Shown: positions 2,022 through 54,000 of the stretch, in pieces
Position numbering within the stretch: the stretch's first letter is position 1
Layout: each line of letters begins with the position of its first letter
Source of the DNA: Selaginella moellendorffii
Lineage: Eukaryota > Plantae > Lycopodiophyta
Direction: 5' to 3'
NCBI RefSeq assembly: GCF_000143415.4
Contig: NW_003314267.1
Coordinates: forward strand, 2,831,839 to 2,895,838
Length of the DNA stretch: 64,000 nucleotides
Made by a program: the position numbers and the translations under genes
The notes under the pieces: generated by a model
Database searches by the model: none
What the model was told of the DNA's origin: nothing
What the model saw: the letters and a program-made list of their open reading frames with translations, nothing else

Positions 2022-3684
2022 TGTAAGCAACTAATTTTTCCATCCTACTTTAGTCACTTAACCACACTTTCAACCACTTGGAGGAGTCTCATTCACAACC
2101 TCCTTAAGTCCAATTCAGGACTTGGGACTTGCTGGCCCCAATAATGGAATCCATGCCACTCATCCTTTGCACTTGGTCCAAGTGCTCCATATGTCTGGTC
2201 CCGAGATCGACACCCCAAGGTACCATTGACATACCGACCCATTATGTTAAGCCCATGCCCATTCACCTTAGTCACACCGGTGGTCCAACACCACCTACAT
2301 CGCAATCTCGTCTCTCAACAACTGGGCCATCTGTCCAAGAGTGACCATCCAAGATCCACTCCTTAGCATCCTTAACATGCCCGCAGACAAGGGAAACCAC
2401 CTTCCCCAATATCCCTTTTACAATCCCCACCAAGTCCCTTTTCTGTCCATGGCCGAGTTTGCCTACACTGCCACTAGGACAAGGCCCCCAGGCCCGACCA
2501 CTAAGTTCCACTGTCCTCTGGGACTTTCTCACCACATGACCGTATCCTTAGTCACCACACCAGGATTGCTCCTCTTCCATTCTATAGTCTAGGACTGGAA
2601 TACTGTGGCCTTACGCGAGTCTTGTGGGTACTCTCCCCTCTTTCCGCCTTTGGGTGCTCTAGCCATGGGCTTAGAGCAAGGTGTAAGAGACTAAATTTTC
2701 CATTTTACTTTAGTCACTTAACCACATGTCTGACCACTTGGAGGAGTCTCATTGACAACCTCCATAAGTCCAACTCAGGACTTGGGGCTTGCTAGCCCCG
2801 AGAATGGCATCCATGCCACTCAACCTTAGCACTTGGTCCAAGTGCTCCACGTGTCCAATCCCATGATCGACACCCCAAGGTATCACCGACGTACCGGCCC
2901 GTTACGCTAAGGCCATGCCCATTTACCTTGGTCACACTGGTGGTCCAACACCACTTGCATCTCCGTCTTGGCCCTCCAAGACTAGGCAAACCATCCGTGA
3001 GTGGTCATCTCAGATCCACTCCTTAGCATCCTTAGGATGCCCACCGACAAGGGGAATAGCCTTCCCCAATATCCCTCTGTCAGTCCCCACTAAGTCCCTT
3101 TCTGCCCCTGGCCGTGTTTGCCAACACTGCCACTGGATCGAGACCCACAGGCCCGACCACTAAGTCCTACGGTCCTCTGGGACTTCCTCACCACACGACT
3201 GTGTCCTTGGTCACTACCCCAGAGGACTGCTCCTCTTCCTTTCCACAGTCTGGGCCTTTGGGACAACATTTCGGAACACCGTGGCCTTACGCGAGCCACC
3301 TGGGTACTCTCCTCGCCTTCTGCCCTTGGGTGCTCTAGCCATGGGCTTAGAGCGGGTTCCATTGAGCCACACCAGGTATCCAAGTAGGTAGTGCCACCCA
3401 CACTTGGACTGGGAGCATCGGCCAGTCGATCTCCCGGGGGAACTAGAGCCGGCTCTTGAACACTTCACCAAGCTACCCCACTTGTCGGTCCGTGTTCACT
3501 CTAGTCTTGGACTTCCCAGTGGGCATCTCATCACCCAACACTGGGTCCGGCCTTCCTGGGCCAAACTGGCCTTTCCTGGCCAAACTGGCTCCACTGCAGT
3601 CCTCCCCCTACTATACTTTTGGAGCTCACCAAACCCCCCAGGGTCTGGGAGACGAACGCTTTGGGCTTTCACCCTCTCAGGCTC

Positions 3685-4192
3685 CGGACTCGGACTCGGA
3701 CTCGGACTCAGACTCGGACTCGGATTCAGACTCGGACTCGGGCTCGGGCCCGGTCTCGGCCTCGGCCTCGGTCTCGGTCTCGGTCCCGATCTCGGTCTCG
3801 GTCTCGGTCCCGGTCTCGGTGTCGACTTCGGACTCCATCTCGGACTCCATCTCGGACTCCATCTCGGGTCCATCTCGGGTCCATCTCGGACTCCATCTCG
3901 GACTCCATCTCGGACTCCATCTCGGGTCCATCTCGGACTCCACTTCGGACTCCAACTCGGGTCCATCTCGGGTCCACCTCGGACTCCATCTCGGACTCCA
4001 TCTCGGACTCCATCTCGGGTCCATCTCGAACTCCACTTCGGACTCCAACTCGGGTCCATCTCGGGTCCACCTCGGACTCCACTTTGGACTCCATCTCGGA
4101 CTCCATCTCGGGTCCATCTCAGACTCCATTTCGGACTCCAACTCGGGTCCATCTCGGACTCCACTTCGGACTCCAACTCGAGTCCATCTCGG
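3685..4192. repeat. LTR-internal tandem arrays: 6-mers GGACTC/GGTCTC followed by 12-mer GGACTCCATCTC and variants
   Basis: Directly visible; equivalent arrays at ~155-845, 8672-9277, 13310-13882, 17385-17630, 62405-62920; related degenerate array in family-B LTR 10345-10580. Confidence 0.95.
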
Positions 4193-4425
4193 ACGCTCCC
4201 ACGTGTCATGTGTTGGTCCTTTTGGGTCCCTTTTTGGAGCCTTGCCTTTTGCTCGCTTCGTGCTCGTTCCTCGAGCACTTCGTTGGGAGTTCCACTCCCG
4301 CTCTTGACTTTTCAAGTCGGAGCTTTTGGTCCAAACGTGTTACGCTCGTTTGGCTCTCGCTTCGGCCACTACCATTTGGCGCCCTTCCGGCTCCACTTTG
4401 GGGCCTAGGGATTTTGTGTCTCACA

Positions 4426-4440
4426 ACTCCACCACCCATA
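4426..4440 (-). promoter_or_regulatory. Polypurine tract of family-A element
   Basis: Minus strand TATGGGTGGTGGAGT abuts the 3' LTR; identical at 10654-10668 (family B) and 17863-17877. Confidence 0.85.
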
Positions 4441-7400
4441 GACGAAGTTCGATGTCCTCATCGAACGGTAAACCATTTTGTAAAGTAACACTCGCATGTG
4501 TTACCATTTCCATCCTTGGCACCTAGCCAATATTTGTCAATGGTTTGACATTGAAGACTCACCATGCCTTTTGCATATGCCTCAATGGTTTGACACCAAA
4601 GGCTCACCATGCCTTGCCTATCCTCTAAGGACGGTAGTCTCCCCAACTTAGAGACTGATTGGACCATATGTAGTGGTTCTCTCCTTTTATTGGTTTAGTT
4701 CTCGCTAAACCTCTTAGAGACCCTTCTCTAAGTCAATCCCACTACTCCTTCTTGAGTAGTCTTAATTTCCATCTATTGAATGTTTGCACCTTGGAACTTT
4801 TACTCTTTTGACTTTTGGAAGTCAATTTCCTAGGTGTCTCCAACACCTTGCATTGCACAGATTGTGCGACTCCACTTCCCTATCCTAGGAAGTTCATTAC
4901 TTGAGGGCACCATCATCCTCTCTTCTATTTTGTGCCACCTTGGGCACTAAGTTCCATTTATCACACTTTGTGCTAGGGTTGTCCATCGCCCTATCATTTG
5001 GCTACCTTACCGCTCCCTTCCTTGGAGCTTCCACTTTCGCCAAATCGGAGCAATTCGGAATCCATCCTAGTGATTTGGGACTCGAACCCAAGCACTAGAG
5101 GGTCGGGACTCGAACCCAACCTCCGTATATGCATCTACGGACGGCATCACACAAGATGCCTGGCGTGACTCCCCACGCCGGTGCACCAACTTATTTTTAA
5201 AGCGTGCTACAGATCACAGCTTAGGAACCTAGTTCCTCCACACTGCCAAGTCCTCTCACTTGACATGTCTGTGATCATGCATGGACTCCTCCATGCTTGG
5301 CCCCATGGCCCACCCTTTTTGAAGATATCACCTTCAACTAGGGTCTTTGTTCCCCCGACGTGCCAATCTCACTTGGCAAGTCCTCCGACCATTGTAACAT
5401 GATTCCTGCATAAGCGTGAAAGTCCTTGACCATCGACTTTCGTTCAAAGCCCTCTCTTTGAACACTCGGGAACTACTTCCCTAACCTTGATAGCCTTGCC
5501 TCATGGCAAGCTTCAAGACCACGCTTTTGCTGCGCCACTCTGATTTCGCGCATTCCATGAACCATTTACACTTGGCCTTTCTAGGTACTACGCTACCTAG
5601 AATCGTCTTTGGGAACCTTGAAGGAACTCTGTCCCTCAGCTTGCTAAGGCCTCCACTTTCGCAAGCTTTATAATTGCCATATAGTCTAACATGGACAATT
5701 CCATATTTTAGACTCTCCATGGCATCACGGTTGCTAGCAACAACATCCTCGAGCACCCTCTTGATTCTCCACTCCCAACTTTCATAACCACTGTTGGATA
5801 TGCCCTTTGATTTCTATGGTTCAGTTCCATCCCAATACTACTTGCCTTTGGCTTCACACCTTTCCTTCTGTCATTCTCCTCCAGACCAGGAGGATAGCTT
5901 TGCACTTTCTATCATGCCTTAGCAAGTATTCTTAGGGATGAACCTACCCAATAGCCCAGGGAGTGGTTCCTCAATCCGGGTATGCTCAGCTTATAATCCC
6001 ACACACTGGGATTACATTGTTGCTTATGGGCCTTTACATGCCCATCACTAGCCTTGCCAAAATTCCAGTTTTGGCTTTGTCCAACTTGGGTAGACAGTCC
6101 TCTCCTGTCTCCGCAACCTTGGACATTTAGATAGCACCTTCTATCCATCATTCGCTAGGGACTTAGTCCCTTGGGCTTTATCCATTGCCCTCGCGACATC
6201 AAACACCACCTTCTGGTGTTCTAGAGTGTTCGGGTGTCCCAATGATAGCTTTCTTGACAATGAGTATTTCCTTTTATGACATTGACTTACTATATCGCAA
6301 CATAAGCAACTTATCTCCTGTAAGGGTATATTCGACTTCTCTATACTAGAAGTCTTGGGTAGCTACCTTCTACCCGTTTAACCAGTTATTTTGCACCTCT
6401 TGCTTAGTTGCCTCATAGTTGTCAAGTTCTACAACTCATTGCTTGATGCTTGCACACCTCCATCATTATCTGGGTCACCGCACTCCAACTGCATGCTCTG
6501 CCGCTTAGGCTATGCCATTCCCATTTCCATTGGGATTCCTTTGGCAAGGGGTTCTCATGAACCCACCAACATAGCCTCAAGGTATCTGATTCACACCTTG
6601 GCACATTTGGTGTCTCCACACCATCAGCTCCACGAGCCTACCTCTATGACACTTCCCCTTCGTGTTTAAGTCTTTGCCAAGACCAACACCGCTCTTTCTC
6701 ATGCCAACCATCCGTTAGCACTACACCATAGAGGTCACACACAACTTTGTGTCAAAGTTGTTTTCTTCTGGGAACACCTTTCCTATAACTTTAGCATGGC
6801 ACATTTTGCCATCGATGAGATACTCTCTGTTCTCATCCTTGGATCCTATGATCCCCCCCCCCATCCTTTGTGGGGTACAACGCACCTCAGTCCAAATGCT
6901 TCTATCAGTCCTTTTAGGACCATCCCTTGACTCTACTTGAGTTGTCTAGCAGTTTTGGACTTGGTTAATCCACCGACCCGTAAGGTCCTACTTGTGAGGC
7001 ACTAGCTCACTGGAATACACTTCTTGCATTCCGGTCCTACTCAAAAGGACTATTTTCACAAGTGTTACTCCGACACTTGATTTTGTTCTCTGGGGGCAAC
7101 CTTTGCCCCTTAGGACTACTTGTCCATGTGATGAGAATACCAACTCATCCACTTAATACACCCCCAACTCCTTGGGTTGTTCCAGCATTTATTAAAGGTA
7201 GCCCCGGCTACCATTTCAAGGACTTGAGTCCTCTTCCGTATTTGACCTTCCACGGTCATTACCTTTGGTTTCACATTCATGAGCACCAACCTCAACTATA
7301 TGAGGATAATCTTGTGACTCCTTTATTGTTTTGGAGTCTCTATCTTTCCCGTGATCCCAACTTTAGTTGTTTACCACAACAACCTAAGCCAATTTGCTGA

Positions 7401-7653
7401 GACAAATGCTCATCCGGATCACATCCTCAACTCAATGAGGAAAACCTTGCACTGTTCCCAAAATCCCAAAGTCGTTCCATTATTGGCCCTTTTCTATCCA
7501 CCACCTCGTCTACAAGTTCACACATGAACTGTAATGGAGAGCCATGTCTTCCCGACTTGCTACTCCTCAAGGATAGGCCCACTCCTCGGACCTTCCGATG
7601 CCAACACTAGTGGTGATATACTTGAGCACCAATAAAAGTCGGACTAAGGAACA

Positions 7654-7665
7654 GCTCCGATACCA
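7654..7665 (-). promoter_or_regulatory. Primer binding site, initiator tRNA-Met type
   Basis: Minus strand TGGTATCGGAGC, 3 nt inside the 5' LTR (consensus TGGTATCAGAGC). Confidence 0.88.
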
Positions 7666-9538
7666 AATTTTAAGCGACTAAATTTTCCATTTTACTTTAG
7701 TCACTTAACCACATGTCTGACCACTTGGAGGAGTCTCATTGACAACCTCCATAAGTCCAACTCAGGACTTGGGGCTTGCTAGCCCCGAGAATGGCATCCA
7801 TGCCACTCAACCTTAGCACTTGGTCCAAGTGCTCCACGTGTCCGATCCAATGATCGACACCCCAAGGTATCACCGACGTACCGGCCCGTTACGCTAAGGC
7901 CATGCCCATTTACCTTGGTCACACTGGTGGTCCAACACCACTTGCATCTCCGTCTTGGCCCTCCAAGACTAGGCAAACCATCCGTGAGTGGTCATCTCAG
8001 ATCCACTCCTTAGCATCCTTAGGATGCCCACCGACAAGGGGAATAGCCTTCCCCAATATCCCTCTGTCAGTCCCCACTAAGTCCCTTTCTGCCCCTGGCC
8101 GTGTTTGCCAACACTGCCACTGGATCGAGACCCACAGGCCTGACCACTAAGTCCTACGGTCCTCTGGGACTTCCTCACCACACGACTGTGTCCTTGGTCA
8201 CTACCCCAGAGGATTGCTCCTCTTCCTTTCCACAGTCTAGGCCTTTGGGACAACATTTCGGAACACCGTGGCCTTACGCGAGCCACCTGGGTACTCTCCT
8301 CGCCTTCTGCCCTTGGGTGCTCTAGCCATGGGCTTAGAGCGGGTTCCATTGAGCCACACCAAGTATCCAAGTAGGTAGTGCCACCCACACTTGGACTGGG
8401 AGCATCGGCCAGTCGATCTCCCGGGGGAACTAGAGCCGGCTCTTGAACACTTCACCAAGCTACCCCACTTGTCGGTCCATGTTTACTCTAGTCTTGGACT
8501 TCCCAGTGGGCATCTCATCACCCAACACTGGGTCCGGCCTTCCTGGGCCAAACTGGCCTTTCCTGGCCAAACTGGCTCCACTGCAGTCCTCCCCCTACTA
8601 TACTTTTGGAGCTCACCAAACCCCCCAGGGTCTGGGAGACGAACGCTTTGGGCTTTCACCCTCTCAGGCTCCGGACTCGGACTTGGACTCGGACTCGGAC
8701 TCGGACTCGGATTCGGACTCGGACTCGGGCTCGGTCTCGGTCCCAGTCTCAGTCCCGGTCTCGGTCTCGACTTCGGACTCCATCTCGAGTCCATCTCAGA
8801 TTCCATCTCAAGTACATCTCGAACTCCATCTCGGACTCCATCTCGGACTCCATCTCGAACTCCATCTCGGGTCCATCTCGGGTCCATCTCGGACTCCATC
8901 TCGGACTCCATCTCGGGTCCATCTCGGACTCCACTTCGGACTCCAACTCGGGTCCATCTCGGGTCCACCTCGGACTCCATCTCGGACTCCATCTCGGACT
9001 CCATCTCGGGTCCATCTCGGACTCCACTTCGGACTCCAACTCGGGTCCATCTCGGGTCCACCTCGGACTCCATCTCGGACTCCATCTCGGACTCCATCTC
9101 GGGTCCATCTCGGACTCCACTTCGGACTCCAACTCGGGTCCATCTCGGGTCCACCTCGGACTCCACTTTGGACTCCATCTCGGACTCCATCTCGGGTCCA
9201 TCTCGGACTCCATTTCGGACTCCAACTCGGGTCCATCTCGGACTCCACTTCGGACTCCAACTCGAGTCCATCTCGGACACTCCCACGTGTCATGTGTTGG
9301 TCCTTTTGGGTCCCTTTTTGGAGCCTTGCCTTTTGCTCGCTTCGTGCTCGTTCCTCGAGCACTTCGTTGGGAGTTCCACTCCCGCTCTTGACTTTTCAAG
9401 TCGGAGCTTTTGGTCCAAACGTGTTACGCTCGTTTGGCTCTCGCTTCGGCCACTACCATTTGGCGCCCTTCCGGCTCCACTTTGGGGCCTAGGGATTTTG
9501 TGTCTCACACAAGGTTCCGTTAAGCCATGCCAGGTATC

Positions 9539-12500
9539 TGTAAGCCACAAATTTTTCCTTTCCAATTTGCCAACTTACCTTGTCTACCCGATCAACACTA
9601 CCTTGTCTTGTACTAAGTTCTCTCGCCAAGGTTCTCACTTATTGTACCAGGTCCTACTTGGTTCTACTTGGTTTCAGCTACTCACTGCACAAATAACAGA
9701 GAGTTAGCCTTCCATCCACGGATTCCCAAATCCCTCCCAATCCCCCTCCCCGGGTTAGACTGGACTTAAGGTTCGGCTACACTCCCCCTAGGCACAAGCA
9801 GCCAAGCACACCAAGCCTCCAGGTTCCTAACACCCCTTGGTACAATAAGACTTGATCATGGAACCCTCTAAATCCCAAACCTTGGCTGCAACACTTGCTT
9901 TGGGACATCGGCACGAAACACTGTGGCCTAACGGCCCAGTATGGGTACCTCTACCCCCCCACTTCCATCCCGAAGGGAAGGCCCAAGCCCCTAAGAAGGG
10001 CGAGGACCAATGAGCCACAAGGTACTGAAGTGGGGCACCACTCCACATGAGCCGGGAGCACCATAGTCGGTTTCCCTTTCGGGAGTGGGAGCTGCTCTTG
10101 AGCACTTCCCTGGGTGGCCCCTCCAGCACCACCCAAGCCCATGCTCACTCCCACCCAAGGCCCCTCGGCCCCAGTCTCAACCTCAAGTCAGTTTGGAAGC
10201 ACCACTAGAGAGTTCCTTCAAGACTGGTTCCTGGACCTCATTATCCCTACTATACTTTTGGAACCCCCTGCAGTGCCCCCCCCCCCCCCCCCCCCCCCGG
10301 GAAATGCACGCTTTGGGCTTTCACCCCTTGACCCGTATTAGTATCTCGGACCCAACTTTGGACTCAGTCTCGGACTCGATCTCGGACTTGATCTTGGACC
10401 CGATCTCGGACTCGACTTTGGACTCGACTTCAGACTCGGTCTCGGACCCAATTTGGATCTCGGACTCTATCTCAAACTCGGTCAGGAACTCGGTCTCCGA
10501 TTTGGCCTTGGACTCGATCCCGGACTCTATCTCGAACTCGGTCTCAGAGTCGGTCTTGGACTCGATCTTCGACTCGGTCCCATCCGATGAACTCTTTGTC
10601 ATTTCGGTCATGCTTTTGAGGATCCTTTACCCTCGGGGAGTCAGTTCCTTACAACTCCACCACCCATAGAAGAAGTTCGATGCCCACATCAAACGTCTCT
10701 TTTTATCCTACGACTTGTTGACCATGTCTCCAGGGGCATCCCCCCACTTAGCGGTGTGCCTAAGTTAGCCTCCCCGGCCAAGAGCCCATGACAACGGAAT
10801 ATAGGTGTCCCTATACCCTTCACCTCACCACGCCCTAGTATGGGATCAGGACTTGAACCCAGCCTTGCTTTACTAGAGGGTTGGGACTCGAACCTAACCT
10901 CCATAGAATACATCTATGGATTCGACATCCCCACGGGGAGTTAGGCGTAGTGCCCTACGCCTGGTCGACCTAGCCAACCCATGCTAATTAGCTTACCTTT
11001 AGCGTGCCTTTGGGTCCCAATATATGCCATTGCTCAACTTCACAAATTGATATTCTAATTGAACTTTGCATAAGTACATAGAGTTCTGCATTGCAGAAAT
11101 TCCTCCACTAGATCTCGCGCGTTTGCTAGGTTCTCCTCCGGTTCCCATGTTGCTTCGCAGTGTGGAAATCCTTTCCACTTCACAAGGAACTCTCTCACCT
11201 CGCGTCCTGGTCGCTTGCTCTTGCGTGCATTGAGGATGGCCTTGACTTCGTATTCCTCTTCCCCTTGGATAACCTCAGGTAAAGGTCTTACTTGGTCCTT
11301 GCAAAGCGGATCCTCAAAGTACGGCTTGAGTAAGTTCATGTGGAACACTGGGTGCATCTTCCCCATCTCTCAAGGAAGTTGGAGATGGTAAGCCACTTTA
11401 CCGATTCGTGCCTCAATCTCCTAAAGCCCCACAAACCTACTTAAGAAACTCAAGATCAATTCATTTGTAGAAATACATGCATTTTTACCTTTGGGTCAAC
11501 TTCCGGCTGATCCCACTTGGTAGCCTGAGGTTCTTGGTGTTCAGCCAGACCTTCTCCCCAGCTTGGAACTCTACATCCTGACGCTTCTGGTTCACGTACT
11601 TGGTTTGCCTTTGTTGAGCTCGTTCCAAGGAATCCCTCACTAGATTCCAGATGTTGAGTCTTTCCACCGTGAATGCTTCCACTACGGGTAACTCTCCATG
11701 ATACTCGGCCACGCCGAGTTCCACAGGACCTTCAATAGCTCGCCCATTGATGACTTCCCATGGACTCACCCCGATACTTGAATGTGGTGAGTTGTTATAA
11801 CACATTTCCGCAAGTCCCAAATGACTTACCCAATCGGTCTGGTCTCCTGAGACATAGCATCGCAAATAATCCTCTAGCTGCCTATTCACCCTTTCCATTT
11901 GTCCGTCTGTCAAGAAGTGTTCGTGCCATCAAACTTGACTTAATACCCAATACCTGTCTGTGGGTGATAAGCTGTGCTGAATTTCAACTTAGTGTGATAC
12001 TATTCCAAGAGAGTCCTTCAGAACCTACTAGTGAAGATCTTATCTCGATCTGAGATAATCTCTTCCAGCCTTCCCCGCACTTGAACCACTTATTTGAAGA
12101 ACAACTTTGCCACACCTTCCACATCCACTTCCGTTGTGGTGGGTATGAAATGTGCCATTTTTGAAAATCGGTCCACCACCACGAATATCGCATCAAACCC
12201 CTCGCTTGGGGGGAGTCCCGTGATGAAGTCCATCATAAGACATTTCCACGGACGATCTGGAATTGGGATGCTTTGCAACAAGCCCCCACTAGCCTTAGTC
12301 ACGGCTTTTACCTGCTGATATTTGGACATGTCTTTACATAGTCTTGGACATCCGTAGCCATATCTGGCCAGTGATACTTCCTCTTGAGTAAGCCCATCAT
12401 CTTGGGCACTCCGCCGTGTCCCGCAAGAGGTCCGTCATGACACTCTTCTAAGGCAACCTTCCTTAGTTCCCCTTCTGGAACATACACCCTCGTTTGTTTG

Positions 12501-13160
12501 TAATAGATGAGTCCATTGCATTCCGCATAGCCCGTTTTCTCTTCTGCTGGCAGCTCACCTCTCTGGTGAACTTCCCGTGCCTCTAGATTCCTTAGCAACA
12601 CTTCTTGTGCTAAACCATCGTTCTCATATGCTGTCCGCACATCGTCCCAAAAGGTAGCTGTTGCACTGGATATCGCCAACTTCAAGCTCGCTTTTCGACT
12701 TAGCGCATCTGCCACGATGTTGCTCTTCCCAGGCTTGTACAGGATTTCACAATCAAACTCGGCCAAGGCATTGGCCCACCGACCCTGTTTCCCTCTTAGG
12801 TCGGGCTATGACAAGAAGTGTTTCGTTGCCACATTGTCCGTGTAAACCTTGAAGTGTCTCCCAAGGTAGTGTTGCCACTCCTTGAGTGCCTTAACCACCG
12901 CAAACAGTTCCTTCTCGTGGGTAGGCTACTTCCTTTGAGCCTTATTCAACTTCTTCGAGAAGAACACTACTGGATGGTCGTCTTGCTTCAAAACTGTGCC
13001 CAACGCAATGTCTGAAACATCCATTTCTACCTCAAAATCCTTACCAAAGTCTAGTAATGCCAACACAGGAGCCTTCCTCAACTTCCCTTTGAGGTGGACG
13101 AATGCCGCCTCGCATTCCGCTGTCCATACCATCTTCCCTTTTCCTTTCTCGGTTATCCCA
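9539..13160 (-). mobile_element. 5'-truncated Ty3/gypsy chromovirus (family B, Galadriel-like): 3' LTR 9539-10653, PPT, 3' UTR, pol fragment
   Basis: LTR TGTAAG...CTTACA; PPT 10654-10668; RNase H/integrase/chromodomain coding on minus strand; abrupt junction back into family-A LTR at ~13160. Confidence 0.9.
11055..13160 (-). pseudogene. pol: pol fragment: RT connection, RNase H, integrase, chromodomain; contains two GT-AG introns (11907-11953, 11437-11488)
   Basis: WTAECEAAF..LK; TDNVATKHFLS..RWANALAEFDCEILYKPGKSNIVADALSRK; [12 protein letters not shown]; [20 protein letters not shown]; HPQTDGQMERVN after splicing; HPVFH; YEVKAILNAR..FLVKWKGFPHCEATWEPEENL; several stops and a frameshift near 12320. 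Confidence 0.92.
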
Positions 13161-14097
13161 TCACCCAACATCTGGGTACAACCTTCCTGGGCTAAACTGG
13201 CCTTTCCTAGCCAAACTGGCTCCATTGGAGTCCTCTTCCTACTATACTTTTAGAGCTCACCAAATCCCCCAGGGTCTGGGAAACAAAGGCTTTGGGCTTT
13301 CACCTCTCAGACTTGAACTCGAACTCGGACTTGGACTTGAAATTGGACTAGGACTCAAACTCAGACTCGGACTCGGGCTTGGGCTTGGTCTCGGCCTCGG
13401 CCTCGGTCTCGGTCCCAGTCTCAGTCCCGGTCTCGGTCTCGACTTCGGACTCCATCTCGAGTCCATCTCAGATTCCATCTCAAGTTCATCTCGAACTCCA
13501 TCTCGGTCCATCTCGGGTCCATCTCGAACTCCATCTCGGGTCCATCTCAGACTCCATCTCGGGTCCATCTCGGGTCCATCTCGGACTCCGTCTTGGGTCC
13601 ATCTCGGATCCATCTTGGACTCCATCTCGGTCCATTTCGGACTCTATCTCGGACTCCATCTGGGGTCCATCTCGAACTCCATCTCGGGTCCATCTCAGAC
13701 TCCATCTCGAGTCCATCTCGGATCCATCTCGGAATTCATCTCGGACTCCATTTCAGGTCCATCTCGGACTCCATCTCGGGTCCATCTTAGACTCCATCTT
13801 AGACTCCATCTTAGGTCCATCTCAAACTCCATCTCGGACTCCATTTCGGACTCCATCTCAGGTCCATCTCGGATCCATCTCGAGCCCCTTTTCTAGGGAC
13901 TCTTTTATTGCTCACTTCATGCTCGTTCCTTGAGCACATCATTGGGAGTTCCACTCCCACTCTTGACCTTTCAAGTCGGAGCCTTTTAGTGCAAACGTGT
14001 TAGGCTTGGTGCAAACGCTCATTTTGCTTTCGCTTCGGCCACTACCACATGGCACCCTTTCGGCTCCACTTTGGGGCTTAGGGATTTGTGTCTCACA

Positions 14098-33972: not shown

Positions 33973-36269
33973 AATATCTGTCCCCCGATGCCAATAGCAC
34001 TTTTAAATAAAGAAGTACTAGCAAAAGTCCCAGCTACGCTGGGAGCATTGTGTTTATTTCTGATATTTTAATAATTTCAAAGAGTTGTAAGCGTATTTGT
34101 AATTTTTAACATAATCATAATTATAAGATATATAGTTAAACATAACATAATATTTATATTAAAAATATCTTCAACAATTGACTCCATCACCAACAAACAT
34201 CATAACATAATAAATATAACTCAGTACATTATATTATATTTAAAATTCTGATTGTTGACTGAAGTCTTGGATATTCTGTAAATGGAATTTCTCACTGTGG
34301 GATCCCATGGCCAGATGAGTCATTTTTTATTAACTAATTTCTTCTTTTATTTGAAATCTCTATATAATTGATAAAAATCTTATTATTTGATGATTTATTA
34401 AACTATATAATTACTCCTCTTAACAAAGTATGTGCTACTTCGGTACACTCGATTATAATGATGTTAAAAATATATTTAATATATATTTAAAAACTCACTT
34501 AAAGTGCATACATCTTTTAAATCTAAAAAATATAAACATTGTTATGGAGTTTCTCTATTCATCATTTCAGACTGAAAGTTTTGGAATTGCATAATAATAA
34601 GTGAAAGACGTTAGCTTTATGTGTTATATTTTCTTTTAAAAACTTTTAATATTTTACATATTTATCATTGATACTCCCTTTTTACCTAATATTTATATTC
34701 ATGCATTCTGAGAGTAATATTTAAAATATAAAGTATTCTATTATATATCATAAACATTATTTCTGTATTTATTTTTATAAATCTAAAATAATAATATTAT
34801 TTATTTTTATTCATGCTTTTATATTTAAAATTAAGGCTTTATAACACTGTTATGAATGCTGAAACTTTATGATGATAAATGAATGGTAATTTTTTACTCT
34901 ATACTGGGGTAGAGTAGGGTTTGATGATATATAATCTTGACTTTATGCTAGAGCTATAATATATCAGAAAATTCATAAATGGTATATAGATAGGTTTAAT
35001 ATCATATAATTAAAATTCTGTATATGGTCCATGTACTAATGTTATCTCAATCATATTTATACCTTATTATGTTTTCATGTATAAATGCAATGTAGGATAA
35101 AGTGGTAGAAAATTTATGATATTATATAAATCTTAGACTACATCTTAGCCAACCATAAGTTTACTAATGAGAAAATATTTTACACAACAAATATCTAGAA
35201 CTATTAACTCCTCTATTTTATGTAAGAAAATATCATATTTTTATAGAAATTACTTTTTTATATTCTAATTTAGATACTTTTTTCTTTTATTATATTTAGT
35301 ACTTTTTAAAATTTATTTAAAAATATTCCTTAAAATTACATTATATTTTATTTTGAATTATTTTTTCCATATTTGTATTCGATATCCTGTCCCTTCATAA
35401 TATTTACATTTATGCTTTTTAGAAGTACTATCTAAAGGTTAAGGTATTATATTTTATATCATTAAGTTTCTTTGTGGATATGTTTTTATATAGAGAGAAT
35501 GCTAAAATGAATTAAGATTTTTACCTTTATTTTTAATTTATTTTTATATAAATTTACATTGAGACTAAAATATTCAATGAAAGTTATGTTTTATCCTGAT
35601 ATTATGGTATTGATGATTCATAATATTGATTTTTTCCTAAAACCATAACATATCAGAAAATAAAAAAAGGTCCATTGATTGCTTTATTAAAAATAAAATT
35701 TTAAGTGATGAGGAATCACATTTTTTAAGATGGTAGCCTTTTGTATTTGTCTAATATTGTCTCAATGATATTTTATGTATCTGTTTTCCATGTATCAATG
35801 CACAAATTATTAGTGTAAATAACAGACTTATTACACATTCATCAATGAATCTACTCATATTGAGTTGTCTCTTAGCTTACATGTAGTCTCATATTTGTGC
35901 AATATCATAAAGTTAAAAATCATAAGATTATGATAAAAGTATAACTTATTTACAAGATATAATAGCTGGAGCTATTCAACTCTTCTATTTTAAGTTATAA
36001 AATATATAATTTCTATAGTCACTACTTAATTTACTTTTAACTTTATAGTATATCTTTTATTGTGTGTACTATATACCATCTTTGTAAAAAAATTATGTTT
36101 AATTTTAATAATGTAGCATTGAATTAATCAGATACTCTTTGTTCTATAAAGTTTTTATTCTATAGAAGAAAGAGTATATGATTGATTTGATAATACATGT
36201 TTAAACATATTGAACATATTTTTTGTTTTAAATATATCGTACATAGTAGACATAATAAAAAAATTCATC

Positions 36270-36625
36270 AATGAATACCATCTTTGTACAACTAAATGTT
36301 TAAAATCATTTGAACCTAGTGCATTATATTATCTTGGATCAGTTGTCTAATTGCCTTTTATATGTATTACGATATCATTTATGCCTCCTTGAAAATTTGT
36401 TAATTTTAACACTTCATTCTCTATTTCTTACAATATTGTGAATGCATTAGTATAGGGATTTATCTCTTTTAATAATTTATCAAGACCACCCATTAGTTGC
36501 TCATTGCATTTAGAATTGTGTTTGTTTTTTGATTTTTATCTCCGTTGCTTGAGCAGTATCTAAAATATTTCATTGTGAATAAGCTGCATATTTTTCATTA
36601 TTTGGTTTGAAACTTCCAATATATC
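36270..36625 (-). pseudogene. Helitron Rep/helicase N-terminal remnant
   Basis: YIGSFKPNNEKYAAYSQ*KYLDTAQATEIK..NSKCNEQLMGGLDKLLKEINPYTNAF and DPR*YNA match Helitron-like N-terminal motifs (AQLYIxD, NPY, RRYNxP). Confidence 0.7.
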
Positions 36626-38199
36626 TACGCTGGGAGCATCATGTTTATTCTTAATGTTTTAGTATTTCAAAAATTTGAAATCATGATTATAATTTTAATA
36701 TAATCATAATTATAACATACATAGTTAACATAACATAATATAATATTTATATTCAAAATCCATTTTAAAAATATAACATAATAAATAATATAATAAATTT
36801 AACTTATAACATAATATAACATTTAAAACTCTGAGTGCTGCATGATCTTCTATAAATGGAATTTTTCACTGTGGGATTCCATGGCCAGATGAGTCAATTA
36901 AATATTGAGGCTTGGTAACTATTTTATTTATTTAAAATCTCCATATAATTGATCTAAAATTTTTCCTCTTGAAAAAATTTGTTTCTTAAGTATACTAAAA
37001 TATAATGGTTTCAAAAATAAAGATTTAAAACTCACTTAAACTATATACATCTTATAAAATTAAAAAATATAACCATTTTTATTGAGTTTTATTTTTCATC
37101 TCTTTAGACTGAAAGTTTTGGAATTGCATGATACTAAGTGATAGAAATTACCTTTATGTGTTATATTTTTTTAGAAAAATTTCAAAATTTTACATATTTA
37201 TCTATGATATTCCCTTATTCCTAATATTTATATTCTTACATTTTGAGAGTAATATTTAATATTAGAAGTATTCTACTTTATATCATTAGCATTATTTCTG
37301 TATGTGTTTTTTAATAGAGAGAATGCTAATGTAAAATAAGTTATTATCTCTCTATTTTCATGGATTTATATTTAAAATTAAGGCTTTATTACAATATTAT
37401 AAAGGATGAAATTTTATAATGATAAATGAATGGCAAGGTTTTACTCTATACTGAGGTAATAATGATATATAAAAAATTTCTTTATTCTAAAAATATAATA
37501 TACCAGAAAATTCATAAATGGTATATAGATAGATTTAATATAATTAATGTTCAATTGATGATGAATCACATTTCTTTAGATGGTTCTTGTACTAATGTTG
37601 TCTCAATGATATTTATACCTTATTATTTTTGTCATGTATAATTACAATGTAAGAAAAAATGTTAGAAAATTTATGATATTACATAAATCTTAGACTACAT
37701 CTGAGCGATATATATAAAATTAGAGCCACCTACTGCAATGATCAATGAGGCTCTTTCATTTAAATATATTGGATGATTAGTGAAAGATCTCGATTCAACT
37801 TTGATCTTTATTTATATATCAATAAACGTTTTACAATTCTTTCTTTACATTTCAACTCCCTTGTTTTCCTTTTCGTTCCAACTTGTTTTCATTCTGCATT
37901 TGTTCTCGGCAGCCACTGAAAATGTTTTCCAGCCATAGACATAAGAGATGTTGATGTCCGGAGAATACAAAAAAGAAAAACGCAAGCAAATGAAGTTAGT
38001 AATGGTGAAAAGGAAATAGGAACTTACTGCTGGCATTTTCTTTTAAGCCACTTGAACTTTCTTGTTCTCAAGGCCGGGAGCACTCCTTTTCACACCACTC
38101 CTTCACAGCTTGTCGGTCTTAATGCTGGAATTTTTGACAAATCCATGGGTGTTGCAGAACCTGATCGAACCTGAACCTGATTGGTCCTTGCTTGTTTGC

Positions 38200-39464: not shown

Positions 39465-41030
39465 TTAGCTTTTACTACGGCCTTTTGGACGTGCTGTGGT
39501 TTCCTCCTGTGATGCTTTCCTTCCTGGCATTAGAGAGTAACTGAGGATGTAAGATTGCACTGCCTGAGCAAAGCCAGGCTTGTACGAGAAGAGCAGCCCA
39601 CGGAAGAGCTTCCCATCGATGGAGGCTTCTAGCGTGTATCTGTAGTTGAATACGTCGCTTACTTTAGCCTCGAACATCTTCTCGCCTAGCGGCTGAACGT
39701 GAGCTTGAAACTCTGTAGCATGAGTTTGACAGAGAAAATTTGGAGAGGTCCAAGGTTTTCTGCAGATACCTCCGTGAGATGAAACCAAGCTCTTGTCCGC
39801 ATCCCGTTGCTTGTCTAGCACAAATGGCGTGGCACAATACTCTTGCCGCCTTCTCTTAAGTTCCTTACGCATGGGTAGCTTTGGTTCTGATGGATCTTTC
39901 TCCCTCAGCATCTTTTCACAGAAAAACGGCAACCATATTGTCAGCAGCAATGTCAATAAAAGAAGAAGCCAACCTGTGTCGAGGAAATACATGTCATCCA
40001 GAGCTTCAAACTCTTCGTTACATCCCCCATAGAAGAATAATATGCCTCGCCCTGCGTTCACCAGCTCTTGGCATCAGCTCGGCACTAGTCGTCTTTACCT
40101 CCCGCCATGCCATTGTTTCTGGAAACACAAATGAATTCGCAAGTTTAAAACCAGCACAATGTATGTACCTGTGTCCAGAATATGAATGTCGTATAGATAG
40201 GCATTACCACCGTTCTTGCCACCCATGACAATGCAACAGTTCTTATTATGGATATCCCGAGGAATAGGTGAGACTCCAGTGGTAGAAATCTTCTTCCAGA
40301 AAAAAGTATCTACAGGAAAAAAAAGAGTTTAGAAGAAAACCAGGAAAGATAACAGGATATTACTCATGTTCAAAACATGGAGGTCGTTGTAGTACTCCTC
40401 CTCTGAGGGATCACTGGATTTCCCACATCCCCCAAACACTAACAGGTTGTCACCGATGAGAGATGTGCTATGTCCTTCTCTCGGAGCAGGAACATCACCA
40501 AAAACGTCGGGTTTCCCCCAGGTGTTGGTAGCTGCATTGGATGATAAGAACAAGAAAAAAAATTTGATAGAACTCGCTTACCAGTATCCAAAACAAAGAG
40601 ATCATCTAGCGGGCTGGTTCCATCGGTACCACCAAACACATAGAGCTTAGACCCGACGGCCGTGGAGCTGTGGCTGTCCCGAGGAGAAGGGTGCGTTCCT
40701 TTCATCACAGGCTTGCTCCAGATGTACGTCCCTGCACGATCCCAGCAAAACATGATCAAAACCATATTTCCAGTTGAATAGCGAAGAGCAAGAGAGTGAA
40801 AAACCTTGATTCTAGTCGTGGTTCCAGCCTCGAGAACCTGGAACAAACAGGGACTTGAGAGACTCGAAAAAAGAATGGCAACGAGCAAGAGAGTGAAGAA
40901 CCTTGATTCTAGTCATCGATGACAACGTGAATCCCCTCATTTTCCGAGACGTCATCCCTGTCGTGCGCTCCATCAGAGCCTCTTCGCCTTTCACTCCCAA
41001 TCCTCGTCGCATTTCCGAGCAGAGCACGTC
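39465..41030 (-). pseudogene. Kelch-repeat protein gene copy with missing exons
   Basis: WSKPVMKGTHPSPRDSHSSTAVGSKLYVFGGTDG; WGKPDVFGDVPAPREGHST; FYGGCNEEFEALDDMYFLDT; C-terminal YTLEASIDGKLFRGLLFSYKPG. Confidence 0.8.
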
Positions 41031-44000
41031 GATCTACCAAATGCACCTGCGCAGGCGGATGCTGGCGGATTTATTCCCCACGAAGTCTGGAAGGCGTCGA
41101 GCCTNNNNNNNNNNNNNNNNNNNNNNNNNNNNNNNNNNNNNNNNNNNNNNNNNNNNNNNNNNNNNNNNNNNNNNNNNNNNNNNNNNNNNNNNNNNNNNNN
41201 NNNNNNNNNNNNNNNNNNNNNNNNNNNNNNNNNNNNNNNNNNNNNNNNNNNNNNNNNNNNNNNNNNNNNNNNNNNNNNNNNNNNNNNNNNNNNNNNNNNN
41301 NNNNNNNNNNNNNNNNNNNNNNNNNNNNNNNNNNNNNNNNNNNNNNNNNNNNAGAATAAGTGACGCCAGTATATGCTATTATTATACCGGCTCTTTATGA
41401 GTATGATGATGATGACTAGCAAGGACCCCAGCTCCGCTGGGAGATATAGCATACCCAAGATAAATACATCTTCTTTTCTAATTTTACAGTGTTGATTCTA
41501 ATTATAAAGTATAAAAGATATTTTAATTATTCATGTTTATAGTAGTATGTTACATCTGTAGTAAATTTAAAGTATGTTAGATTAGATCTGTTCCACTGGG
41601 AGATATAGCACAGCCAAGATAAATACATCTTCCTTTCTAATTTTACAATGTTAGAAATTTTGATTGTATACAAGGTTCAATTTATCTTAATTTTGCTACT
41701 ATTCATCTTAAAAGAAATGCAAAATAATGCAATTAGATAATAATGCAAGTTTTGGAGAAGATATAATCATTTTTTAATCATCATTAAATTTGAATTTGAA
41801 TTCTTTTATTGCCTTTATAAAAAGGTACACAACGCTAAACACACGTACAAGATTGATGCCATGCTTTAAAAGCAATTGAGTTTTCACAAAACCAAAGAAT
41901 TATATACTGCCAAAAAATAATAGGTTAGTTTGGGGAAATTATATTTTTGATTACATACTAAGCTTTCAAAAATTTATAAAGATAATACTTATCACTATGA
42001 TTTATATTAATTTTAAGATAAATGTTGTTGAAAACTCTACTCTTGAAGACTAAATATTATGTTGAAAATTAATTATACATATAAATATACTTATAAATAA
42101 AAATAAAAACATTTTCTAAATTTCCTCAAGTATGTGCATGTTTTTGATATTTATATGATCAATAATTTCTCTAAATAGCAAAAATAATATAGTTTAAAAT
42201 ATAATAACTCATTTATATTTCAAAAAATAGCACACTTTTATTTTATATCTTGCATTAAATATTCCACTATCTTGTTTTTTAACTAAAAAAGCTATCCTCT
42301 AAATATTAACTGTTTTTATAATATTCAAATTTGCTATCAGTAATTTCTTATATATTTATCATCTTGTAAAACCAATCTATAACACTTTCATTCTATTGCC
42401 ACTATCTACATCCATTGGAGTTCTGAATGTGGGAATATGTTGATATTATAAGTGGACTTAGCATATATATCAAAAGCATGTAATTGATTTTTTAGACTTT
42501 GACTTAAAATATAAGACTAAAATACATAATTAGATTATAATACTATGGAATTAAATTTAGAAAGAATCATGATAAAAACTCTTAGGGATTTCCTTCATAG
42601 TAGGCTTAGTTTAATTCTGATTTGGAGAGAAGCCATAATTGATTTATTCTAGAATGGAATTCTTGTTAAATAAAGAATATCACTGTTGATTACAATTAGT
42701 TACACAACACTACCAGTAAAGCAATCCAGTAAGAAATGTTAGCAATAAACATAGAAAATAACATTATTATATTCATAAGAAAATCTAAACATGTTAGCAC
42801 AGCATTTTATTTAGGATAAGAGCTTTTAACCCATTTCTAATCCATCAAAAATGAATGTCCAAAAATTGTAACANNNNNNNNNNNNNNNNNNNNNNNNNNN
42901 NNNNNNNNNNNNNNNNNNNNNNNNNNNNNNNNNNNNNNNNNNNNNNNNNNNNNNNNNNNNNNNNNNNNNNNNNTAAGAAATGCCAAAAGTTTTATAGAAA
43001 ACCTTATTACTATAAATAACTCTTCAAGAGTGTAATTACAAAAGGTATATTGTTTTAATTTTTAAATGAATGCGCATAGAAGAAAAGAAATTTGCAATAC
43101 AAATCCATGAATCTTTGTTTGGATTAAGGTTTTTTATGAAAAAAAATTAGGATTTGTGAATTTTTCATGGTTGTATTAACCATCACATTACACTAAGAGT
43201 ACAATATATCATACTTTAATTTTCTCATTTAATTTAAATATACAGATAAGTGAAGTAAAATTCACTAACTTTTCATGCTTATAAATACCTTTATGGAGAA
43301 CATAAAATTACTCATAAAAGTTTTTCAAGCTGGAGTTTGTTAATTCTTGAAGTGTTATTACAATTAGATAGTGAATCTGACTAATACATTAGTGACACTT
43401 ATTAATATAAAGAAATTTCTAATTATTTTGATACACAATTGTATACTCATGTTGATTAGATGTAATTACTTTTAATTTTACCTGATTTCTTTTTCCTTTA
43501 TTTCTTCATCTTAGAAATGCATATAGAAAACCTTATTATTATAAATCAATAATAAGTTGATAATATTATATCACTTTTTTTTATTATTATCATGGTATTA
43601 TAAAATAGTTCTTATTATTGACTTATTGATATCAACATTATATCATGCTCATTGAATAGCCACTGCTTGATAAGAATTAACACCCTTTCAGCTGTTGAAT
43701 CTGTGATAATAACAAATACAACTCAAAAACAAAATCAATCTATGCTATCAAAGTTTTACTCAAGGAACTTCATGTGCTTGGATGTACCAGCAAGGACTCC
43801 TTAGCTTATGGAACTGCAGAGGTAGCTCAAGTTTTTCTTTCATCTCCAAGAAGTTTCTTAAGTCTTCAAGAGTAGTGTTTTCTAAAAAAAACTAATGATA
43901 TTTTTGAGATATTTTTTAGAATTGCATGTTTGGAATATATACATTACCAAAGATTTCTCTAAATAGCAAAAAATAAATTACATCAATATAAATACTAATA

Positions 44001-45189
44001 TATTTTTCATAAGATTAGCAACATTCTTTATTCTTTCTTGCTTCAAATGCCACATCCATTATATGTTTTTTTCTCTAAAATCCTTCTTTAGGTCAACTAT
44101 CAACGTCTTATTTTTCAATATTCAAAATTCACTATTCTGTAATGGCTTACTACAAGGTCTTAGCTTGGACTATTGAAATAGGAGATAGGATACCATTATT
44201 TGAATTTACAATGTTAGTTTGTGCAGCAGTGGATTGTAACACATTTGTTAAGGACCATTTGATAGTAAGATTGAAATGGTGACCTTTGTGGCCCGAACTC
44301 ATGTTTCTATGCTCCCTGCCACCACAAGCCATTCTAAGGAAGCTCCTGAATATAGTGTCAGGAAATGCAACTGATGTTAGATCTCTTCCTCTTGCAAGGA
44401 TATGTGTCTGTCTGGGTATTCGCAAAGGTGATGATCCAATTCTATTCTTCTTCCACATTTTGTTTTGGGTGATTAATTTATCTGATTCATTTCATTGTTT
44501 GAGAGTGAAGTGGCAAGAGACTGACATTTTTTATGAAATCTCTGCTTGTGTCATTCCGACCTTNNNNNNNNNNNNNNNNNNNNNNNNNNNNNNNNNNNNN
44601 NNNNNNNNNNNNNNNNNNNNNNNNNNNNNNNNNNNNNNNNNNNNNNNNNNNNNNNNNNNNNNNNNNNNNNNNNNNNNNNNNNNNNNNNNNNNNNNNNNNN
44701 NNNNNNNNNNNNNNNNNNNNNNNNNNNNNNNNNNNNNNNNNNNNNNNNNNNNNNNNNNNNNNNNNNNNNNNNNNNNNNNNNNNNNNNNNNNNNNNNNNNN
44801 NNNNNNNNNNNNNNNNNNNNNNNNNNNNNNNNNNNNNNNNNNNNNNNNNNNNNNNNNNNNNNNNNNNNNNNNNNNNNNNNNNNNNNNNNNNNNNNNNNNN
44901 NNNNNNNNNNNNNNNNNNNNNNNNNNNNNNNNNNNNNNNNNNNNNNNNNNNNNNNNNNNNNNNNNNNNNNNNNNNNNNNNNNNNNNNNNNNNNNNNNNNN
45001 NNNNNNNNNNNNNNNNNNNNNNNNNNNNNNNNNNNNNNNNNNNNNNNNNNNNNNNNNNNNNNNNNNNNNNNNNNNNNNNNNNNNNNNNNNNNNNNNNNNN
45101 NNNNNNNNNNNNNNNNNNNNNNNNNNNNNNNNNNNNNNNNNNNNNNNNNNNNNNNNNNNNNNNNNNNNNNNNNNNNNNNNNNNNNNNNN

Positions 45190-50019: not shown

Positions 50020-50670
50020 CAAACTTGGAAACGCAAATGAATTCGCGAGTTTAAAACCAGCACAATGTATGTACCTGTGTCCATAATATAAACGTCGTTT
50101 AGATAGGCATTACCAGCATCCTCGCCACCCATGACAACGAAACAGTTCTTATAAAAAGAGCAGGTATGGCTATCCTGAGGAATAGGCGAGACTCCAGTGG
50201 TAGAAATCTTCTTCCAGACAAAAGTATCTACAGGGAAAAAAAAAAAGTTTAGAAGAAAACAAGGAAAGATAACAGGATATTACTCGTGTTCAAAACATGG
50301 AGGTCGTTGTAGTACTACTCCTCTGAGGGATCACTGGATTTCCCACATCCCCCAAACACAAACAGGTTGTCACTGATGAGAGACGTGCTATGTCCTTCTC
50401 TCGGAGCAGGAACATCACCAAAAACGTCAGGTTTCCCCCAGGTGTTGGTAGCTGCATCAGGTGATAAGAACAAGAAAAAAAAATTGATAGAACTCGGAGC
50501 TTACTAGTATCCAAAACAAAGAGATCGTTGAGCGGGCTGGTTCCATCGGTACCACCAAACACATAGAGCTTAGACCCGACGGCCGTTGAGCTGTGGCTGT
50601 CTTGAGGAGAAGGGTGCGTTCCTTTCATCACAGGCTTGCTCCAGGTGTACGTCCCTGCGCAATCCCACCA
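50020..50670 (-). pseudogene. Second kelch-repeat fragment (paralog of 40120-40735)
   Basis: Nucleotide colinearity including introns; fused directly to the DnaJ-like fragment. Confidence 0.85.
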
Positions 50671-51017
50671 GAAGAGTGAAGAACCGATGACAACGTGAAT
50701 CCCCTCGTAATCCAATCTGCAAAGCATACATAAGCAAAGCATTCCCTCCCAGTCGATGGAGCGGTTGCAAATCTAGATTTGAAACAGTGCCTCCCATATT
50801 GCCATCTTGGCCGTCGATATCAATCGTCACAGATTTGGATAGTCGGATTAATAGTATCTACCATAAGTAAAATTGAATATTCTAAAAATGGAATATGTGA
50901 CGCCGATGCCAAAATAGCAACTTTAAATAAAGAGTTTGATGATTGTGATTTTATGAATATTTAGGGCAAGTCAAACGGCGCGCCATCTTATTATTTTTCT
51001 GTTGCGTGCATTTCAGG

Positions 51018-54000
51018 ATGAAGGTGACGACAACTCCAGCGCAGGAGTTGGCGCTCTCGAATTGTGCTTATTGCTCTGCTGCAGAAATTGCCAAATTCTT
51101 GCTACCAGGGAGAGACTATGGCTGGGCACTCATTGGCTCAAACATGGTTCTCAATGTGAAATATCCTTCTGATTAACCACGTTTTATCAGTTTTTCTTGA
51201 CGTGTCATATAATACAGCTCATGAAAGCATACAAGAAGGCCAGATTGCGCTCAACGCAATCCAACGACGGAATGCAAAAGTTTCATCCGGGGATGAAATT
51301 TCTGTAGCCAAGTAAGAATCAAGCTCTTCCAGTTCAATAACTCTAATGCATATCCTAGATTTCTCGCCCCAGACAAGGGCTTTAAGCTCGTCGTGGTAAA
51401 TCTTGAGCTAGAGTTTGTGAAGGCGAAGGGTAAAAGTGAACAGGTTTTTCCTGTCCCTTTTCTGGTTTTCGACCTGGCTTACAAATGTAAATAAAATGCG
51501 CAGCTTGATGCTCAGACTCTGGGACAAGAGCTTCAACGACGGTTTGTCTCACAGGTCAGTGTCGAGAGTCTTTTCTTAGCTTGAGCAAGGTGAGGAAAAT
51601 GACATTGCGTTCGTAAAGGTCTTCACTGTCGGCCAGAAAGCAACGTTCGAATACTGTGGTATCAATTACGTTTTTAATGTCTCACATACTTTGGTGGAGG
51701 GGCAAAAAGAAAACGACACCAACGTAATACGTGGAATGCTTAGCCCTGAGACAGCGTTTCTGTTTGAGACAAATCCTGGCTCAGGAATCAAGGTAATGCA
51801 AGTTTAAAATTAGTGGTCCTTATCTAAGAAGTTTTTAGATTGTCAACCAACGTGGTGGAACAACTAGTAATATCTTCAAACAAAAAGACCTGAATTTTCA
51901 GAAGCTGGGGATTGGTGGTTTGGACTTACAATTCCAGGACATCTTTCGTCGAGCTTTCGCATCTAGGGTTTTTCCACCTCATGTAGTCAGCAGGTATACT
52001 CTATATCCGCGAAGTTTAACTTGAACTTGCTCACATGTAAAGGTTGGGAATCTCTCATGTAAAGGGATTGCTGCTTTTTGGCCCTCCTGGTACTGGGAAG
52101 ACATTGATTGCTCGGCAGATCGGGAAAATGTTAAATGGGCGTGAGCCAAAGGTAAATCATGTTCCACATTCTTCGTGGATAGCATATCGTACTGTTTTTT
52201 TTCGCTAAGGTTGTCAATGGACCTGAAGTTCTCAGCAAGTTTGTTGGAGAGACAGAGAAAAACATTCGGGACCTTTTTTCTGACGCTGAAAACGACAAAG
52301 AATGCATGGTTGTGCCGTCTGGAGATTAGAGCTATAATGAAGCCTTTATCTCTATTCTGCAGGTGACCATAGCGAGCTTCATATTATTATATTTGATGAA
52401 CTTGATGCAATATGCAAGGTACATATTTCTCCAGACATTAGGGCATATTTATCTGTTTCAGCAGCTTTTGTTTTTGGCAGGCAAGGGGTACGACCAGAGA
52501 CAGTACAGGGGTCCATGACGGGATTGTCAATCAGTTGCTTACAAAGGTTGGTTCATAGATTATTTCTCCCAGTTGTTTTTGAAACCTTCTATAGATTCCT
52601 GGCGTCGATTCACTCAACAATATACTCCTCATTGGAATGACCAACCGGAAAGATTTGCTGGACGAAGCATTGCTAAGGTCGTATAGATTATGGTGTTTTA
52701 TAACTAATATTTAAACCAGACCAGGGCGTCTTGAGGTGCAAATAGAAATCGGGCTGCCTGACGAGAAAGGGAGACTTCAGATTCTTCGAATCCATTCAAC
52801 TCAGATGAAAGAACACTCATTTTTGGCTTCTGATGTGAACTTGGAGGAGCTTGGTAAGGAATCACTTCAACAAAACTAGAATTACTTGTGTCTTTACAGC
52901 TACACGAACAAAGAATTTTAGTGGTGCGGAACTAGAAGGTCTGGTTAAAAGTGCAGTATCGTTTGGTCTTAATCGACAAGTCAATGTGGAAGACTTATCG
53001 CAACCAATTGATGAAGAAAATATCAAAGTGACAATGAACGATTTTCTTCAGGCACTACATGAAGTCAAACCTGCTTTTGGCGCCGCTATAAACACTTTGG
53101 AGATGTACAGGTGCAGTTTCTGCCTTGAAAAGCAAATAATAAATCCTTATTTCCATTTTCAGGACAAACGGCATGATGAATTGTGGAGATAGACACAGAC
53201 ATATAAGGGAGACTGCGATGACGCTTGTAGAACAGGTGAAGAGTAGTGAGCGCACATCATTGCTTACTTTCCTTCTTGAAGGACCTAGTGGAAGGTACTG
53301 TTCTGTCATTCTTTTGATTTTGCATCACAACTTTTTCAGTGGCAAGACGGCTCTCGCGTCAACAGTTGCAATTGACAGTGATTTTCCATACATGAAGATT
53401 GTATAAACTTTCGAGCATAGTGCATATTTTAATTGGTATTTCTAATTTATCAGGTTACATGTGAAAACATGGTTGGACTGACGGAGGCCACCAAGTGTGG
53501 ATTGATCACTAAGGTGAGAAATTTTCTTATATTTAATATTACAATTTTTAATCTATAGCTCTATTCGACAGGTTTTCGAAGATGCTTATAAGTCACCATT
53601 GAGCATTATTATTTTAGACGAAATTGAAAGGTAAACATTTAAAATATGTAGGTAGATACCATTTATTATGCAGGTTGCTTGAATATGTGAACATTGGCCC
53701 ACGTTCTCCAACGTCATACTTCAAACACTATTTGTTCTCATAAAAAAGTTACCGCCCAAGGTTGATGCCTTGTCATGCTGAAGCTGTTTTTTAATTGAGC
53801 ATTATTCATTTAGGGTAAGAAGTTGATGGTTATTGGAACTTCAAGTATGGTTCATGTACTTCAGTCTATGGATCTTGTGGGTGCATTCAATGTGACTTTA
53901 AATGCTCCAAACCTCGAACCCAATGACGTGAAAAAGGTACAATTACCCTAAGTAGCCCAGTGGCAACCCAAAGGCTTTTTCAGGTCTTGCAAGAAATTCG

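Follow-up and report, generated by a model that had tools for sequence, protein, structure and literature searches.

An intron inside an LTR retrotransposon usually disappears within a single round of copying; the only notable exceptions that a 2025 review gives for plants are Ogre and EVADE. The locus described here raises the question of whether an integrase frame that is broken twice by short inserts is a lesion of a decayed element or the coding sequence of a family that carries introns. We analysed a stretch of 64 kb from Selaginella moellendorffii, called the window throughout. In it, the catalytic core of an LTR-retrotransposon integrase is interrupted by genuine introns that are spliced. 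All coordinates are positions in the window, and the element lies on its minus strand.

Two short introns in an integrase frame

The features of the element and its surroundings are as follows, in the direction of transcription.

13150..14097 (minus): partial LTR of a second, related type, which adjoins the truncated pol; the junction is private to the window copy
11954..13144 (minus): 5' exon with the end of the RT connection, RNase H, the integrase zinc finger and the catalytic Asp codons at 12230 and 12050; decayed and 5' truncated
11954..12000 (minus): exon segment of 47 nt that starts with the same four letters and ends with the same five as intron 1; a tandem duplication may have arisen from it
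11907..11953 (minus): intron 1, 47 nt, with GT-AG ends and in phase 1; it interrupts the Asp codon of the PQT-D-GQ motif in the integrase core
11489..11906 (minus): middle exon, 418 nt, with the remaining integrase core and the Glu codon at 11895; zero stops
11437..11488 (minus): intron 2, 52 nt, GT-AG, 27% G+C, AG/GT context, between the integrase core/linker and the SH3-like end plus chromodomain
11055..11436 (minus): 3' exon with the C-terminal part of the integrase and the chromodomain; two stops in the window copy
10654..10665 (minus): purine-rich, PPT-like tract directly 5' of the 3' LTR
9539..10653 (minus): 3' LTR of about 1115 bp with TG...CA ends; contains a stretch of 23 G (10298-10276) and arrays of 6-nt and 12-nt repeats

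The order RNase H, integrase and chromodomain, followed by PPT and LTR, is that of a Ty3/gypsy chromovirus. Pfam recovers RNase H (E 1e-18), the integrase zinc finger (7e-17) and the chromodomain (Chromo, 5e-16), together with a weak piece of the integrase core at E 0.004, which is below the cut-off. The middle exon has no Pfam match, yet it matches Ty3 Gag-Pol (PDB 7Q5B) and over 10,000 proteins. The window copy itself is dead. It carries seven stops in the four pieces counted and a frame break near 12310-12321, and its 5' part is absent beyond about 13144, where other copies continue into RT and the window copy is joined to the LTR of the second type. Since the copy is decayed, our claims hold for the family and not for the protein of the window copy. 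No other integrase was found in the window by tblastn, in which two of four queries, those for the two downstream exons, were in the right frame.

Downstream lies a further element (2684-9510, minus). Its LTRs measure about 1.8 kb and are 95.5% alike, a primer site of the Met type is located at 7665, and the interior of 3.2 kb has no long ORF; additional LTR starts are located at 1075, 14097, 17862 and 63129. It has a purine tract and 12-nt repeat arrays in common with the intron-bearing family and is possibly its non-autonomous partner. Elsewhere, the window contains a Kelch-repeat gene in two pieces of 91% identity (40120-40750 and 50026-50673, minus), blocks of about 22% G+C (34001-38000 and 41001-45000, with 34034-35149 repeated at 36625-37706 at 75%) and six assembly gaps totalling 1444 N (19660, 30609, 38703, 41105, 42874 and 44564), none of them near the introns.

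An earlier note had proposed that 11907..11953 is an intron which splits the catalytic motif and whose retention stops translation before the catalytic Glu; the intron and the split motif are supported. The length of 47 nt is not a multiple of three, and the upstream frame runs into a stop four codons inside the intron. Among the proteins of a first homologue set, the motif pattern occurs in 97 of 150, unbroken and always with a single residue between PQT and GQxE (89 D, 6 N, 1 S and 1 G). A second set gives the same picture, with the pattern unbroken in all 29 of the 64 proteins that contain it and again one residue in between. In the 14 best-scoring homologues, the alignment shifts frame at both inserts and loses zero protein residues. 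The catalytic triad of integrases follows a 35-residue rule, D-D(35)-E. Between the second Asp at 12050 and the Glu at 11895 we count 155 nt, or 108 nt (36 codons) after subtraction of the 47 nt; with intron 1 discounted, the spacing is exactly D-D(35)-E. The Glu codon at 11895 aligns with a Glu of Ty3 Gag-Pol (PDB 7Q5B), and its catalytic role is putative.

Intron 1 thus has the GT...AG ends of a U2 spliceosomal intron, and its removal restores the conserved frame. In most family members it also contains a motif of the branch-site type, CTAAC, which ends 12 nt before the 3' end of the intron. At 11922 this motif accounts for 99.9% of the depth in sequencing run X1 and for all of it in X9, and it is present in the contigs of X17 and X20; the window copy differs from it at one base. 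As a reference for host introns we used the gene for NSF (vesicle-fusing ATPase; 51018-54200, plus), which has about 20 introns, among them one putative GC-AG call (52304-52362), and whose protein is 95% identical (688/723) to an S. moellendorffii protein. This identity points to that species or a close relative as the host and led us to reject a fungal host, which the intron size had brought to mind. Based on 19 of 21 calls, with two doubtful calls of 35 nt dropped, its introns measure 42-64 nt with a median of 49. Both element introns (47 and 52 nt) fall within this range. CTAAC occurs in none of the 19 host introns and a looser motif in six of them. RNA folding of both introns with their flanks gave nothing unusual (z 0.22, 0.28, -1.37 and -0.57).

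At the site of intron 2, 88 of 90 homologues are unbroken. If intron 2 alone were retained, the chromodomain would be cut off. Over most of the query length, no protein in the two homologue sets exceeds 47% identity. Broken relatives form a cluster (P0164-P0183, P0198, P0206 and P0221) that is 42-47% identical and has the zinc-finger motif in common; site 1 is unbroken in P0171, P0198 and P0206, and site 2 in P0221. A word-based search revealed no longer relatives of the middle exon among 117 candidates, and of 78 pattern matches in a metagenome scan none was confirmed.

Splicing in probable RNA and retention in probable DNA

Evidence for splicing comes from two runs. X15, which is probably RNA, its kind being guessed, yields one contig of 2500 nt at a depth of 11.2 that skips both introns. 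The first skip comprises 47 nt (11906 to 11954, with 107 letters on the short side) and the second 52 nt (11434 to 11487, with 48 letters on the short side), and both show CT..AC on the plus strand. Since the contig skips exactly 47 nt, the insert is not a product of chance. In X21, which is recorded as RNA, one 150-nt read contributes 69, 35 and 46 bases to three adjacent bins and covers 11970 and 11991, with 11922 left uncovered. From these coverage tables we infer that the read skips exactly intron 1, a single read lying below the threshold at which joints are listed. Altogether, the evidence for splicing is thin, with one contig from a run guessed as RNA and one inferred read. The family is expressed at a very low level: X21, X22 and X23 gave 6, 4 and 0 reads of 9.2 million, with 12% of each run sampled, and none of the X22 reads lies over intron 1.

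Other contigs retain the intron. In X17 and X20, from two other studies, intron 1 is present, and the X17 contig agrees with the spliced X15 contig in its subfamily alleles. X1, which is probably a DNA run, contributes 24,626 contigs without a dip in depth (652,266 at 11922 versus 699,697 at 11970; summed depth does not equal copy number), and neither skip is found among the best 15 of its 44 joints. Both inserts are also present in X9, which carries the label of another organism; the only joint in its full table (122 contigs) is neither of the two skips. An assembly artefact is ruled out by the presence of both inserts in other sequencing runs. Rare intronless copies would still fit these data, as contigs drop rare forms and the X1 joints comprise the best 15 of 44. 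Taken together, these data confirm that the 47-nt insert in the integrase core of this Selaginella Ty3/gypsy chromovirus is a spliceosomal intron.

Variants inside intron 1, at 11933 and 11950, mark subfamilies. As they split by subfamily, the intron is older than the subfamily split. The exons allow a test of the spliced frame, for which we used the 32 exon rows among 40 of 70 variant rows (8 intron rows were dropped) and a class rule defined for this analysis. Of the differences at the subfamily level, 14 of 16 are synonymous versus 34% expected (p 2e-5), and downstream of intron 1 the figure is 10 of 12. Differences private to the window copy are synonymous in 8 of 16 cases (Fisher test between the classes, p 0.054). 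The 14 of 16 show that the frame which exists only after splicing was under purifying selection, and this counts against tolerated lesions in a non-autonomous family.

Kinship of the family and origin of intron 1

The layout of the family is in good agreement with that of SM1-Galahad, an element described with hundreds of copies and no intact one (PMC3350952). SM1-Galahad has a long ORF that ends in the integrase core without a chromodomain, followed by ORFs of 316 and 309 bp, and an LTR of more than 1 kb with a poly-G of 11-25 nt (PMC3350952). In our family, the main ORF stops in intron 1, and the chromodomain ORF measures 309 bp from the ATG at 11366 to its stop. The middle ORF has 318 bp from the ATG at 11805 or 411 bp from the ATG at 11898. 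The LTR of about 1115 bp with its 23 G matches the published one, and both have a Selaginella host and many copies. The published three-ORF layout is just what two retained introns give. The window copy fits the motif of PMC3350952 with the minor Phe, the substitutions not being itemised in that paper, which moreover states 113 aa for its own 309 bp, an inconsistent pair of numbers. Neither "intron" nor "splic" occurs in PMC3350952. Judged by published layout, the family is likely SM1-Galahad or a sister. The sister of SM1-Galahad, SM2-Galahad, has one ORF of 4731 bp (PMC3350952). This intronless family and the unbroken homologues support the intron gain that the earlier note had proposed.

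Ogre, a Ty3/gypsy element of legumes, is a functional parallel, since it retains an intron that, according to PMC6317226, PMC12786077 and PMC3735527, is spliced from part of the transcripts to give the full polyprotein. In these accounts, however, the Ogre intron lies between the GAG-PROT and RT ORFs and a chromodomain is absent, whereas the Selaginella family has a chromodomain and two introns of about 50 nt inside the integrase, one of them within the catalytic motif. It works like Ogre but is not a member. Penelope-like elements, which also occur in Selaginella, are likewise retroelements that keep introns; according to PMC8557442, they belong to a different order without an LTR-integrase cycle, and their introns are mostly upstream of the ORF. 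We found no report of the introns described here in a literature search whose scope ended short of the Ogre paper, the S. moellendorffii genome paper, Repbase and supplements beyond that of PMC3350952.

Where did intron 1 come from? GACAG stands directly 5' of the intron and also forms its last letters. The earlier note had read this repeat as a target-site duplication that supplied the acceptor. The repeat is real and flanks the intron as described; it is weak evidence of a target-site duplication, and it fits somewhat better that the GT...AG exon segment next to the intron was duplicated in tandem long ago. The 47 nt just upstream begin with the same four letters as the intron, which is a post hoc observation; the frequency of such a match is 0.4% per position, and among 19 host introns not one shares as many as two letters. 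Such a start is predicted by a tandem duplication and not by a target-site duplication. When scored against a profile of the upstream segment, intron 1 also lies above every one of the 19 host introns. With the ends fixed, the interior of the intron shows no significant likeness to this segment (1202 of 5000 shuffles; 216-294 of 1500). Tandem duplication as a mechanism of intron gain is reported to work in vivo. We hold it with about even confidence as the origin of intron 1. At intron 2, we observe a plain AG/GT site without any such likeness to its upstream exon segment.

An insertion with a 5-bp repeat, by break repair or at a target site, is a less probable origin of intron 1, and a repeat by chance is rather unlikely. 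A total splice-site ambiguity of at least 5 nt is seen for two of the 19 host introns and for 17% of shuffled host pairs. A left-hand repeat of at least 5 nt is rarer, with 4 of 361 host pairs and, given this exon end, 1 of 19 host intron ends. The latter kind of repeat speaks for an introner or a break-repair filler that was flanked by a 5-bp duplication and took its acceptor from it, and in Daphnia 43% of gained introns are reported to have short repeats at their flanks. Against this, such repeats are also reported for 26% of old introns in Drosophila, and an insertion of this kind does not account for the way in which the 47 nt upstream begin like the intron. The ends are not inverted repeats, with only 3-4 of 10 letters complementary, and within the 64-kb window we find no second copy of the 47-mer, for which the earlier note had envisaged introner-like spread (best other match 12 nt, E 0.12). 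We regard an introner or filler as less likely than the tandem duplication.

A proposed mechanism of integrase supply and of the copying of intron-bearing RNA

How can a family keep introns which its integrase needs to have removed? We consider it likely that spliced RNA supplies the complete integrase, that unspliced RNA is the template for reverse transcription, and that the family concerned is SM1-Galahad or a sister. A full integrase with chromodomain would require both splices. Unspliced RNA would give Gag-PR-RT-RNase H and an integrase that ends before the catalytic Glu, and the level of splicing would set the amount of integrase made. The introns would persist in copies because it is the unspliced RNA that gets copied, and a sorting step would keep spliced RNA uncopied, either through separate RNA pools as in BARE or through retention-dependent packaging. 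Both introns are far from any 5' packaging signal, and thus spliced RNA is expected to keep that signal, which counts against the proposed sorting.

Spliced and unspliced RNA also coexist in EVADE/Ty1-copia and in BARE, as we propose here, and in BARE only unspliced, non-polyadenylated RNA is packaged, according to PMC5580714 and PMC3735527. By the same papers, the spliced RNA there serves for Gag only, whereas Pol is made from the unspliced form, the reverse of the integrase here. A wider reading is tentative: the integrase may be under control of the host spliceosome, with introns that set the Gag-to-integrase ratio and yield graded products (without active site, with active site and without chromodomain, and full), one intron arising from duplication of a GT...AG exon segment of host intron size, and dedicated sorting by which only intron-bearing RNA is copied.

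Sorting might be dispensable if spliced and unspliced RNA were copied alike and splicing were rare where the element moves, intronless copies then being merely few. Two of the three probable RNA runs gave intron-retaining contigs, in line with this reading, and so is the knowledge of X1 joints for the best 15 of 44 only. A copy without introns, however, would need no splicing to make its own integrase and would be expected to spread. The variants at 11933 and 11950 show that both introns are older than the split into subfamilies, yet they are still there, and the branch motif is kept. Copying without sorting is hence improbable. It seems more improbable still that the family is non-autonomous and mobilised in trans by the intronless SM2-Galahad integrase, with inserts that are tolerated lesions and splice by chance. 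PMC3350952 does report SM1-Galahad without an intact copy beside an intact single-ORF SM2-Galahad in the same genome, but the synonymous bias among the subfamily-level differences downstream of intron 1 stands against it, as does the preservation of Glu, chromodomain and branch motif.

The least probable route, to which we give very little credence, is spread at the DNA level, by segmental duplication or in the manner of a Ginger-like DNA transposon, whereby introns would be kept without sorting. Ginger elements carry introns. DNA transposons with a Ginger-type integrase are known, one of them from Selaginella lepidophylla, and PMC3350952 gives no target-site duplication for SM1-Galahad. Ginger and GingerRoot have the gypsy-like integrase in common with our family, but GingerRoot, according to PMC6839031, is without RT, RNase H, LTR and chromodomain. 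The Selaginella family has RNase H upstream, a PPT and a TG...CA LTR downstream, and a chromodomain; other copies run into RT, and the differences between subfamilies show the synonymous bias.

On the preferred reading, of spliced RNA for integrase and unspliced RNA for copying, a family with two introns in its integrase exists beside an intronless sister in the same genus. This makes it testable how RNAs to be translated and RNAs to be copied are told apart. The same pair of families makes testable how a new intron arises in a strongly constrained coding sequence. Finally, our results suggest that families described as having no intact copy in genomes with short introns may be intact but spliced.
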